In this document: piece after piece, positions 31,976 through 36,355 of the stretch
Position numbering within the stretch: the stretch's first letter is position 1
How the letters are laid out: each line of letters opens with the position of its first letter
Origin: a virus
Lineage: Duplodnaviria; Heunggongvirae; Uroviricota; Caudoviricetes
Direction: 5' to 3' (one strand)
Length of the DNA stretch: 41,364 bases
IMG/VR virus record: IMGVR_UViG_2909257012_000006
Coordinates: 1-41,364 of that record
Translations under genes and position numbers: made by a program
The notes under the pieces: generated by a model
What the model saw: only the letters and a program-made list of their open reading frames with translations
Databases searched by the model: none
What the model was told of the DNA's origin: nothing

Positions 31976-32114
31976 GACCTTTCTCCTTCTGCATCAGCTT
32001 CACCTTTTCCAACTCAGCCCGGAATCGACCAGGCTGCTTGAAGCTGGACAGGTAGCGATCACGTAGTATGTGTTTGTGAATTTTGTCCTGGTAAGGACTG
32101 AGTTGTTTTGTCAT
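31968..32114 (-). CDS. Small hypothetical ORF between cII and initiator
   Basis: 48 codons with AGGAG RBS; stop overlaps initiator start; not in supplied track (below length cutoff). Confidence 0.35.
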
Positions 32115-32146
32115 AATGACTCCTGTGGATTGATCCAGTAATTCCC

Positions 32147-32446
32147 TCAGAATTCCATCTGGATTTGTTCAGAACGCTCGGTCTTGCACACCGGGCGTTT
32201 TTTATTGGTGAGTCCATCAAGCGCATACTTAAAAGCCCTGCTAATCGGACTGATGTCTGATGCCATTCCGAAAGCACACAAGACCGAAGCAATAAACCTC
32301 CAGTCCGTTCTGCTTATCTTCGATTCATGACAGCCAATCATCTTTGCCAGACCGCGCTGTGTAAGCGTTGACAGGTTGATGAGTAAATCTGTTTCTGCGC
32401 GATCAACGTCGCGCTGTGATAGTTTGCTGTAACTTGTTTGTTCCAT
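32147..32446 (-). CDS. cII: CII-like transcriptional activator
   Basis: C-terminus [20 protein letters not shown] matches recalled lambda CII tail; 99 aa. Confidence 0.8.
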
Positions 32447-32510
32447 TTCTTACTATTTCCATAGGTAAATAATCACTAATACCCATCTTTCGATGAGTGC
32501 TTAATTAGTT

Positions 32511-32545
32511 ACCGCGTTGTCGGCGGTGCAGATTGATAAAGAGCG
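32511..32545 (-). promoter_or_regulatory. nutR (boxA CGCTCTTTA and P22-type boxB hairpin ACCGCCGACAACGCGGT)
   Basis: Read on - strand between cro and cII; boxB matches recalled P22 nutR. Confidence 0.65.
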
Positions 32546-32555
32546 GATCCGCTTA

Positions 32556-32771
32556 TTAAGCGGCTTTGTGTTCCGGCGGGAACACGTCATCAAGACTGAC
32601 TTTTGCGCCTAACTTGTTTAGGCACGCAACAAGAGCACGGCATGTTTTAAGGTCTGGGAAGCGACGACCAGATTCCCAATGTCCGATAGCTCCCTGTGTG
32701 CATCCAACTGCCTTAGCAAGTGTTGTTTGAGAGATATTCAGTGACTCTCGATATTTTCGTAGGTTGCTCAT
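32556..32771 (-). CDS. cro: Cro-like HTH repressor
   Basis: MSNLRKYRESLNISQTTLAKAVGCTQGAIGHWESGRRFP HTH; GGAGG RBS; divergent from cI. Confidence 0.75.
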   Translation of the reverse strand: MSNLRKYRESLNISQTTLAKAVGCTQGAIGHWESGRRFPDLKTCRALVACLNKLGAKVSLDDVFPPEHKAA

Positions 32772-32888
32772 ATGCCCTCCATAGTAACCATGAAACAATA
32801 ATACGATATGTACTTTTGGAATGCAAACAAAAAATACATCTTGTGCATGGATGGTTTTAGTACAGAGCGTAATAATAAGGATATGAAA
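32772..32888. promoter_or_regulatory. Divergent OR/pR/pRM control region between cro and cI
   Basis: 117-bp intergenic region between divergent repressor genes with partial inverted repeats; operators not resolved. Confidence 0.4.
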
Positions 32889-33542
32889 ATGAAATGGTAT
32901 GAACTGGCTAGATCCAGAATGAAAGAGCTCGGCATAACTCAAGAGAAGTTAGCTGAAGAGCTTGGTATGACGCAGGGTGGAATTGGTCACTGGTTGCGCG
33001 GATCTCGTCATCCATCTCTTGACGAGATTGGTGTGGTATTTAAATACCTTGGTATTGATAACGTCTCATTCAACCACGACGGTACATTTTCACCTGTTGG
33101 CGAATACTCATCTGCCCCCGTTAAAAAACAATATGAGTACCCTGTTTTTTCTCATGTTCAGGCCGGGATGTTCTCGCCTGAGCTTAGAACCTTTACCAAA
33201 GGTGATGCGGAGAGATGGGTTAGCACAACCAAAAAAGCCAGTGATTGTGCGTTTTGGCTTGAAGTTGAAGGTAATTCCATGACCGCGCCAACAGGATCCA
33301 AGCCAAGCTTTCCTGACGGGATGTTAATTCTCGTTGACCCTGAGCAGGCTGTTGAGCCAGGTGATTTCTGCATAGCCAGACTTGGTGGTGACGAGTTTAC
33401 CTTCAAGAAACTGATCAGGGATAGCGGTCAGGTGTTCCTACAACCACTAAACCCGCAATATCCAATGATCCCATGCAATGATAGCTGTTCCGTAGTAGGG
33501 AAAGTTATCGCCAGCCAGTGGCCTGAAGAGACATTTAGTTAA
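32889..33542 (+). CDS. cI: CI prophage repressor: novel N-terminal HTH domain fused to lambda-CI-type C-terminal S24 domain
   Basis: C-terminal ~130 aa ([39 protein letters not shown]...) near-identical to recalled lambda CI; N-terminal HTH differs. Confidence 0.9.
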
Positions 33543-33574
33543 CCGCCTCACCGCCATAAAACACACAACAATAA

Positions 33575-33604
33575 CCCGACCTTAGCGTCGGGTTTTCTTT
33601 TTCC
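33575..33604 (+). terminator. Rho-independent terminator downstream of cI
   Basis: CCCGAC-cttagc-GTCGGG followed by TTTTCTTTTTCC. Confidence 0.7.
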
Positions 33605-33667
33605 AAAATATAAATCAATAAAATACAAAGTGTTATAAAAAACCAACCATATTTAGAACATTTTGTA

Positions 33668-33696
33668 TTGACTCAATAAAGTACACATCGTACTAT
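33668..33696 (+). promoter_or_regulatory. pL-like sigma70 promoter (TTGACT-17 bp-TACTAT)
   Basis: Near-consensus hexamers with 17-bp spacer, immediately upstream of nutL. Confidence 0.7.
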
Positions 33697-33741
33697 TTAG
33701 CCATCAGCAGGAAGCTGGAAGCCAAACGGAACAGATTGGCA

Positions 33742-33776
33742 GGCTCTTTAACTTCGATGGGGCGCTGACAAAGCGC
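33742..33776 (+). promoter_or_regulatory. nutL (boxA GGCTCTTTA and P22-type boxB GCGCTGACAAAGCGC)
   Basis: boxB identical to recalled P22 nutL boxB; located downstream of pL. Confidence 0.7.
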
Positions 33777-33804
33777 AAACAGATACCAAACGAGATGGGT
33801 TTGG

Positions 33805-33887
33805 CGGTGTGTAGCTCAGCAGGTAGAGCGGATTCGTTGGCTAAGCCGTGGAATCGCGTCACCAGTTCAAGTCTGGTCACACCACCA
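33805..33887 (+). ncRNA. tRNA-like element with canonical acceptor, D and T arms but a 15-nt loop in place of the anticodon loop
   Basis: Hand fold: acceptor CGGTGTG/CACACCA (6/7 bp), D-arm GCTC-AGCAGGTA-GAGC, 5-bp stem GATTC/GAATC enclosing GTTGGCTAAGCCGTG, variable GCGTC, T-arm ACCAG-TTCAAGT-CTGGT; no encoded CCA in register. Confidence 0.45.
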
Positions 33888-33913
33888 AAGCCATTTCACA
33901 TGGAGAAAAGAAA

Positions 33914-34033
33914 ATGCTGGAAATTATCACCAACCCAATTCTCGGTGGGGCAATCATCACTTTCGCAATCGGCATCGGATTCACTATCTGGTCTGAAGTA
34001 GATGACTGGATGTGGGAGCGCAAAAACAAATAA
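33914..34033 (+). CDS. 39-aa single-pass membrane peptide
   Basis: GGAG RBS 8 nt upstream; MLEIITNPILGGAIITFAIGIGFTIWSEVDDWMWERKNK has one hydrophobic helix and charged tail. Confidence 0.4.
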   Translation: MLEIITNPILGGAIITFAIGIGFTIWSEVDDWMWERKNK

Positions 34034-34073
34034 TCATCGACACACATTCATGTGTGTCTTCACGGAGGTCATC

Positions 34074-34388
34074 ATGACGGTAATCGTATACGGAAAATCA
34101 ACATTTGCAGGAAATGCCAAAACTCGCCGTCATGAGCGGCGCAGAAAGCTGGCTATCGAGCGTGATTCCATCTGCAACATCATCGATTCGATCTTCGGCA
34201 CAGACAGTGAGGAAGCTGTTCAGGAAGAACCGAGAAAGCGTTTAAGCCTTTCTGAAAAAGCAATATCACTCGGCATCATTAGTAAATCAAATACAGATGC
34301 GAATGGCGGAAGCGTTTGCCTGCCCGAAGTTGCACTGTATGCTGCTGGTTACAGGTCAATGAAATCAATTACTGCGAGATATAAATGA
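34074..34388 (+). CDS. N-type antiterminator (P22 gene 24-like)
   Basis: MTVIVYGKSTFAGNAKTRRHERRRKLAIERD arginine-rich motif matches recalled P22 gp24; GGAGG RBS. Confidence 0.85.
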   Translation: MTVIVYGKSTFAGNAKTRRHERRRKLAIERDSICNIIDSIFGTDSEEAVQEEPRKRLSLSEKAISLGIISKSNTDANGGSVCLPEVALYAAGYRSMKSITARYK

Positions 34389-35122: not shown

Positions 35123-35207
35123 TGGCACTAACAACTGAAGTGGTTTACTGAATTTGGCCACCTGAACAGAGGTGATATGCTCACCTCAGAACAACACAGG
35201 TGCCATA

Positions 35208-36355
<1,148 letters not shown>

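Follow-up and report, generated by a model that had tools for sequence, protein, structure and literature searches.

Mosaic repressors in lambdoid phages

Mosaic CI repressors have been described in the immunity group of VT2-Sakai, Stx2 phage 1717 and Nil2, where Smith et al. (2012) reported a lambda-type C-terminus combined with a unique N-terminus ('cI2c-cro4'; PMC3430580). Fagerlund et al. (2022) assigned the Sakai-type CI to clade I, with an overall identity of 61% to lambda CI (PMC8951638). Lambda CI bound VT2-Sa operators with a KDapp of 3.7–6.4 μM, compared with 0.2–3 μM on its own operators (PMC10742460); this weaker binding is consistent with a different specificity and hetero-immunity.

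The same mosaic pattern was found in Salmonella phage epsilon34 by Villafane et al. (2008). [quoted passage not shown] In the same work, the ST64T immunity type was equated with that of phage L (PMC2629481).

Here we characterized the immunity region of a phage-derived DNA stretch of 41,364 nucleotides, referred to below as the window. Its CI repressor is the same kind of mosaic as the epsilon34 repressor (gene 46; PMC2629481). It shares both architecture and junction with the group comprising VT2-Sakai, AP005153, Stx2 II, 1717, 2851 and Nil2, and the same CI type occurs in the P22-like coliphages vB_EcoP-683R2, Dewey, Louie and phi458. The ST64T immunity type was ruled out as a match for the N-terminal domain, the two being ~54% identical, and the epsilon34/ST64T-type specificity probably differs from that of the window phage.

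Organization of the immunity region

A complete lambdoid immunity region was located within positions 32556–33700. Its genes, and the two modules that make up cI, are as follows:

32147..32446, minus strand: cII, 99 aa (Pfam Phage_CII, E = 6.3e-35)
32556..32771, minus strand: cro, 71 aa, all-helical HTH_3 type (Pfam HTH_3, E = 4.2e-12)
32889–33542, plus strand: cI, ORF of the 217-aa CI repressor (Pfam HTH_3 and Peptidase_S24)
32889..33131, plus strand: cI module 1, 81 aa, non-lambda N-terminal HTH_3 DNA-binding domain and beginning of the linker
33132..33542, plus strand: cI module 2, lambda-type remainder of the linker and Peptidase_S24, Tyr101 to stop

The layout is that of the lambda switch: cro is divergent, OR and OL have three operators each, and cII and a homologous terminator are present. 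The original prediction had placed the repressor at 32772–33542; the cI ORF is present there, and bases 32772–32888 (117 bp) form the control region between the divergent cro and cI genes.

The start of cI is ambiguous, with in-frame ATGs at 32847 (231 aa, the choice made in other records), 32883 and 32889. The identical gene in phage vB_EcoP-683R2 is annotated from the last of these (217 aa). Speculatively, TAATAA (32870–32875) might precede a leaderless start at ATG 32883. Within CI, Pfam HTH_3 covered residues 10–57 (E = 8.3e-11) and Peptidase_S24 (PF00717) residues 86–208 (E = 8.8e-29). The locus thus combines the features of a lambdoid CI/LexA-family repressor: an HTH domain, an S24 domain with a Ser-Lys dyad, an Ala-Gly bond, and divergent cro with OR and OL.

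The rest of the window corresponded to a CUS-3/phiv205-1-like P22-type prophage, which encodes a P22-type N protein and boxB. The early-left operon of the prophage carries an IS3-family insertion at about 35172–36355. The window also contains a tRNA-like element that matched only the generic tRNA model in Rfam; scans of species-representative genomes and metagenome returned no further copies of it.

Transcription signals around cI were assigned as follows:

32798..32827, minus strand: PR-like promoter reading into cro; −35 TTTGCA, 18-nt spacer, −10 TATTAT (9/12 consensus matches)
33668..33696, plus strand: PL-like promoter directed toward N; −35 TTGACT, 17-nt spacer, −10 TACTAT (9/12 consensus matches)
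32424..32437, plus strand: candidate CII-binding repeat of PRE, TTGCTGTAACTTGT (TTGC-N6-TTGT), inside the 5' end of cII and directed toward cI
about 33573..33604, plus strand: intrinsic terminator directly 3' of cI, 8-bp stem followed by a T run (terminator scan)

The PR-like promoter was called by consensus match only; its position agrees with that of PR annotated in AP005153, and it overlaps OR1. The PL-like promoter overlaps OL1 and OL2. No PRM was found by the consensus promoter scan, and PRM is expected to be a weak, activated promoter. The TTGC-N6-TTGY pattern was not enriched across the window (4 occurrences against 7 expected), and the repeat at 32424–32437 is tentatively assigned to PRE by its lambda-PRE-like position alone.

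Positions 33565–33600 were 89% identical to lambda 35834–35799, the terminator that follows rexB, and the changes within the stem were compensatory (CCCGAC/GTCGGG here, CCCGGC/GCCGGG in lambda). The two terminators are thus homologous. The rexA and rexB genes, present in lambda, are absent from the immunity region of the window. In Stx phages, cI and OL are separated by additional ORFs totalling ~1.5 kb; the window phage has only the terminator there.

Operator positions were taken from the homologous region of Stx1-converting phage AP005153, where three sites each are annotated at OR and OL. Six 17-mers with the consensus TAGTACAAATTGTACTA were identified at the corresponding positions, three in OR and three in OL, and are predicted to be the CI operators. 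They were ranked by a leave-one-out PWM over 41,348 window positions:

32799..32815, no strand assigned: OR1, TAATACGATATGTACTT; aligns with an AP005153 operator, PWM rank 2, overlaps the PR −10
32832..32848, no strand assigned: OR2, AAATACATCTTGTGCAT; aligns with an AP005153 operator, PWM rank 28, weakest match
32858..32874, no strand assigned: OR3, TAGTACAGAGCGTAATA; AP005153 counterpart, PWM rank 6, adjoins the cI start
33621..33637, no strand assigned: OL3, AAATACAAAGTGTTATA; AP005153 counterpart, PWM rank 5
33654..33670, no strand assigned: OL2, TAGAACATTTTGTATTG; AP005153 counterpart, PWM rank 5
33679..33695, no strand assigned: OL1, AAGTACACATCGTACTA; AP005153 counterpart, PWM rank 2, best palindrome, top score with the full PWM (19.5)

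Five of the six sites therefore ranked between 2 and 6 and OR2 ranked 28 among the 41,348 positions; with the full PWM, the six sites were the six best matches in the window. Of the operators, a repeat search of the OR region recovered the OR1/OR3 inverted pair alone. Each of the six sites has a homologous Sakai-type counterpart: the outer half-site bases are kept, and each 17-mer carries 1–3 differences, mostly central. The core proposed for epsilon34 operators, WTACRAWWTGTAT, also resembles the window consensus (PMC2629481).

The operators differ from those of lambda, as had been claimed from the sequence: no DNA similarity was seen at OR or OL, and the consensus is different (TAGTAC... here, TATCACCGC... 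in lambda). Spacing differs as well. Centre-to-centre distances were 33 bp for OR1-OR2 and 26 bp for OR2-OR3, and 25 bp for OL1-OL2 and 33 bp for OL2-OL3, compared with 24/23 bp (OR) and 24/20 bp (OL) in lambda. Because OR1 and OR2 lie 33 bp apart rather than 24, lambda-style pairwise cooperativity at these sites is not guaranteed, and which pair would be filled cooperatively cannot be read off lambda.

Mosaic structure and distribution of the repressor

From Tyr101 to its end, CI was identical to lambda CI at 133 of 136 residues (98%, global alignment). The only differences were S139C, E217D and G236S, at residues not known to determine cooperativity or cleavage. The original prediction had described the C-terminal ~130 residues as near-identical to lambda CI and proposed alignment as the way to tell this from only generic S24-family similarity; the identity found lies far beyond such similarity. 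In a phmmer search against PDB, the lambda repressor 3bdn was the top match (E = 2.1e-96), and isolated lambda C-terminal domains (8gmu, 2ho0, 1kca, 1f39) matched with E-values of 1e-64 to 1e-90, while the next family, LexA, reached a mere E~1e-6.

At the nucleotide level, module 2 (33132–33542) was 93.4% identical to lambda cI, and positions 33132–33536 aligned with lambda 37637–37233 over 405 nt, gap-free, at 94.1% identity. No DNA match to lambda was obtained for the rest of cI, the operator region or cro. In 15-nt blocks compared in register 5' of 33132, only 1–8 of 15 positions matched lambda, about chance level, so that lambda identity is lost within a few bases 5' of codon 101. A recombination junction inside cI had been proposed, and alignment to lambda CI placed it: the mosaic junction is sharp and falls at codon 101. 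This is within the linker between the two domains, and the Ala-Gly cleavage site follows 10 codons later.

The cleavage-site and catalytic residues of lambda CI lie within module 2 and are preserved in their local context:

33162..33167, plus strand: codons of Ala111-Gly112 (lambda numbering); VQAGMF identical to lambda residues 109–114
33276..33278, plus strand: codon of Ser149, catalytic nucleophile; EGNSMT identical to lambda
33405..33407, plus strand: codon of Lys192, general base; FTFKKLI identical to lambda

We take Ala111-Gly112 to be the autocleavage site, as established for lambda CI. The whole oligomerisation surface is likewise as in lambda CI. RecA*-stimulated autocleavage would be expected because the cleavage and catalytic module is 98% identical to that of lambda, and RecA-dependent induction and cooperativity are reasonable inferences.

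The N-terminal domain belongs to a different lineage. BLASTP aligned it with that of lambda only over a 26-residue HTH stretch, at 46% identity, and the N-terminal arm of lambda CI is missing. The two domains are nevertheless both Pfam HTH_3, and the description of the N-terminal domain as unrelated to lambda's therefore went too far. Cro was correctly assigned to a different family, since it matched HTH_3 only and lambda Cro matches Pfam 'Cro' (PF09048, E = 5.9e-35). Cro and the CI N-terminal domain of the window phage were 35% identical over 62 aa and have the recognition-helix motif TQG-IGHW in common, a likeness to be expected because both proteins would read the same operators. With N-terminal domain, operators and Cro fold all non-lambda, the locus is not of the lambda immunity (imm-lambda) type.

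The stretch from cro to the N-terminal part of cI (32556–33130) was 94–99% identical in 68 phage records. Identity reached 99% in the P22-like coliphages vB_EcoP-683R2, 720R6, Dewey and Louie and 94–95% in 62 other records, including VT2-Sakai, a Stx1-converting phage, Stx2 phage II, Nil2 and 2851; phage 1717 matched a wider query (32100–33700) at 93%. By tblastn, 63 phage records, of the Sakai/1717/Nil2 group, encode a CI N-terminal domain at least 95% identical to that of the window (96–100%); for AP005153, 2851 and Stx2 II, identity across the 81 aa was 96.3%. The CI protein is identical to cI of vB_EcoP-683R2. Compared with AP005153, CI has three N-terminal amino acid differences, outside the HTH, and four C-terminal ones; the 23-residue HTH stretch is identical, as are all 71 residues of Cro and the putative Cro of AP005153. 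The Stx-phage allele and that of the window are ~93–94% identical in DNA.

Among 5426 complete E. coli genomes, the CI N-terminal module was present in 775, and lambda's own N-terminal module in 618, fewer than the Sakai-type one. The E. coli EC20 chromosome was 100% identical to the window in this region. Matches in assemblies labelled 'DH5alpha' were considered as possible phi80 sequence; this was ruled out, the region belonging to a P22-like prophage in that assembly.

The CI of the window is thus of the known VT2-Sakai/1717/Nil2 immunity type, and the mosaic, its operators and the group had already been annotated and published. The claim of a new immunity specificity has to be abandoned, as the same set of cro, operators and cI N-terminal module occurs in Sakai-group phages and in the 775 E. 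coli genomes. Homoimmunity with Sakai-type phages is suggested by these identities; strict homoimmunity we can only infer, because each operator departs from its Sakai-type counterpart at 1–3 positions.

Origin and function of the mosaic

Of the 27 nucleotide differences between module 2 and lambda, 23 were synonymous, and three codons were nonsynonymous. By the Nei-Gojobori method, dS was 0.32, dN 0.009 and dN/dS 0.03, which points to strong purifying selection on the C-terminal module. For the Sakai-type C-terminal allele, dS was 0.39 against lambda and 0.44 against the window, and the three alleles are thus roughly equidistant (dS 0.32–0.44). Distances of this size, roughly equal among the three, indicate that the module was not recently borrowed from lambda itself and that the exchange is old.

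When the C-terminal module alone was used as query, 288 database proteins matched at E ≤ 1e-30. Among 92 full-length ones, three main types of N-terminal part were distinguished: 36 carried the Sakai type, 31 the MKTMHEIIGERIK type and 22 the lambda type. All three types were found on the same C-terminal clusters (at least 88% identity), with 27, 12 and 12 members in the cluster designated C0. In the E. coli protein P0042, lambda identity begins only near residue 139, and other junctions therefore exist. Taken from these alignments, the picture is one of recurrent recombination at or near the linker, with N-terminal types reassorting on the same C-terminal clusters.

Such recurrent reassortment argues against an N-terminal domain that diverged in place, without recombination, under diversifying selection while purifying selection froze the C-terminal domain. 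That scenario would accommodate the very low C-terminal dN/dS, as well as the shared HTH_3 fold and the 46% identity over the HTH stretch. However, synonymous sites were kept too (93% nucleotide identity against approximately chance level just upstream), and synonymous conservation that switches abruptly within a few bases cannot come from selection on the protein. Together with the presence of three N-terminal types on one C-terminal cluster, of one N-terminal type on different clusters, and of a junction elsewhere in P0042, this makes the scenario very unlikely. A novel hybrid immunity, arisen when lambda itself recently recombined with an unknown phage, draws on the 98% protein identity of the C-terminal module and on the sharpness of the junction. 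It is refuted by distribution and by dS, and we regard it as extremely improbable: this combination of cro, operators and cI N-terminal module is shared by at least 63 phage records and 775 E. coli genomes, the mosaic pattern was already in print (PMC2629481, PMC3430580), and the roughly equal distances among the alleles, with a dS of 0.32 from lambda, do not agree with a recent event involving lambda itself.

The repressor could also be a decayed, non-functional remnant in a defective prophage, given the IS3-family insertion in the early-left region and the stop codon reported in VT2-Sa cI (PMC3430580). Against this, the cI ORF has its full length and encodes every catalytic and cleavage residue, the rest of the switch (cro, cII, OR, OL and terminator) is intact, and the identical CI protein is encoded by vB_EcoP-683R2, a phage deposited as a complete genome. 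Values of dN/dS of 0 against the 683R2 allele and 0.03 against lambda further point to ongoing selection, and decay has only a minimal chance of being the correct explanation.

Very probably, the CI encoded at this locus is intact and serves as the maintenance repressor of an E. coli prophage that is P22-like (CUS-3-like, Lederbergvirus) and belongs to the known VT2-Sakai/Stx2 phage 1717/Nil2 immunity group. In the mechanism we propose, CI dimers would bind through the N-terminal HTH_3 domain to the three 17-bp operators at OR and the three at OL, and their occupancy would shut off PR (cro, cII and the replication genes) and PL (N). Cro, with its related recognition helix, would bind the same operators. 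The C-terminal two thirds, of lambda lineage, would carry dimerisation and dimer-dimer contacts. Upon SOS, RecA* would stimulate Ser149/Lys192 self-cleavage at Ala111-Gly112; with the DNA-binding and oligomerisation domains separated, the prophage would be induced as in lambda, via CI cleavage. For this allele, binding to the predicted sites, RecA-dependent cleavage and cooperativity are all expected by homology. The mosaic itself would be one case of N-terminal specificity modules reassorting on a conserved C-terminal induction/oligomerisation module in enterobacterial prophages.

Two further consequences may be imagined, both of which we consider unlikely. Mixed CI dimers, or dimer-dimer contacts, with lambda-immunity repressors in a shared cell are conceivable because the C-terminal domains are 98% identical; if formed, they would couple hetero-immune prophages and could lead to their mutual destabilisation or co-induction. 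Genomes with several matching loci do exist (1433 places in 1206 genomes). Separately, a lambda-type cooperativity surface might operate on a different operator geometry, and cooperativity at OR1-OR2 over 33 bp, if real, would mean a switch wired differently from that of lambda.

The window copy contributes no more than a further allele, carried by a P22-like prophage, and the placement of the junction at codon 101 and the tabulated reassortment of N-terminal types by C-terminal clusters are modest refinements. The locus nevertheless offers a clean textbook case of intragenic module exchange in phage repressors, in which the specificity module (N-terminal domain, operators and cro) was swapped and the induction/oligomerisation module was kept. 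Many Stx-converting prophages are under the control of this immunity type, which occurs in ~14% of complete E. coli genomes and is therefore of medical relevance.

Operators and flanks of the repressor gene

The repressor gene cI is bordered by the following features.

32799-32874: predicted OR operators
33543-33604: stretch 3′ of cI, with a terminator and no rex genes
33621-33695: predicted OL operators

Centre-to-centre distances between the operators were 33 bp for OR1-OR2, 26 bp for OR2-OR3, 25 bp for OL1-OL2 and 33 bp for OL2-OL3. This spacing is asymmetric and differs from that of phage lambda, and the gap between OR1 and OR2 accommodates the -35 element of the predicted PR promoter. Neither rexA nor rexB is present at 33543-33604. 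The terminator located directly 3′ of cI is homologous to the one following rexB in lambda, with compensatory changes in the stem. In Stx phages of the same immunity (the VT2-Sakai/1717/Nil2 group), the corresponding site is occupied by other ORFs spanning approximately 1.5 kb.

Two assemblies of about 4.83 Mb labelled as DH5alpha, including NZ_CP026085.1, contained the immunity region at 98.8% identity, hosted by a P22-like prophage. Such a prophage is unexpected in DH5alpha, and the strain label of these assemblies may be wrong.

Among relatives retrieved with the C-terminal module of CI, the E. coli repressor P0042 combined an N-terminal domain of the MKTMHEIIGERIK type with a non-lambda linker, and its identity to lambda CI began only at about residue 139. 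A second recombination junction within the same gene family is evident in this protein.

A tRNA-like element in the PL leader

The leader transcribed from the PL-like promoter contains an aberrant tRNA-like element, positioned between a P22-type boxB and the N gene.

33792-33897 (core 33805-33885), + strand: tRNA-like element, detected by ARAGORN and the Rfam tRNA model

ARAGORN assigned it as an 82 nt tRNA-Pro(tgg), and the copy in E. coli EC20 is annotated by PGAP as ‘tRNA-OTHER’. The Rfam tRNA model scored 38 bits, but the ‘anticodon loop’ comprises 15 nt, within which the predicted fold forms a 4-bp hairpin. Beneath the cloverleaf, leader and trailer are predicted to pair over a further 12 bp (7 + 5 bp). 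The minimum free energy was −47.9 kcal/mol (z = −5.0).

The element is very rare. It was present in 1 of 5426 E. coli genomes, in two IMG/VR contigs, both from the same prophage, and, among phage records, in the P22-like Salmonella phage P6 alone, where it occupies the same position; scans of species-representative genomes and metagenomes returned no copies. It may serve as a site at which RNase P or RNase III processes the N leader, or alternatively as a decoy tRNA.

N, nutL and the early-left operon

33760-33774: nutL boxB, P22-type, GCGCTGACAAAGCGC
33914-34058: 39-aa hydrophobic ORF (MLEIITNPILGGAIITFAIGIGF...) with downstream hairpin (34039-34058)
34076-34388: N protein (Pfam N_peptide, E = 1e-36) carrying the P22-type arginine-rich motif GNAKTRRHERRRKLAIER
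about 35172-36355: IS3-family insertion sequence with two ORFs (112 and 272 aa)

The 39-aa ORF has a good Shine-Dalgarno sequence and, together with its hairpin, constitutes an insertion separating N from the tRNA-like element, whereas in phage P6 the two directly adjoin. The early-left operon also carries the IS3-family insertion sequence; the otherwise identical prophage of E. coli EC20 has no annotated transposase at this site.

Since boxB and the arginine-rich motif of N are both of the P22 type, the antitermination specificity is predicted to be P22-like, and is here combined with a lambda-like repressor C-terminal domain.
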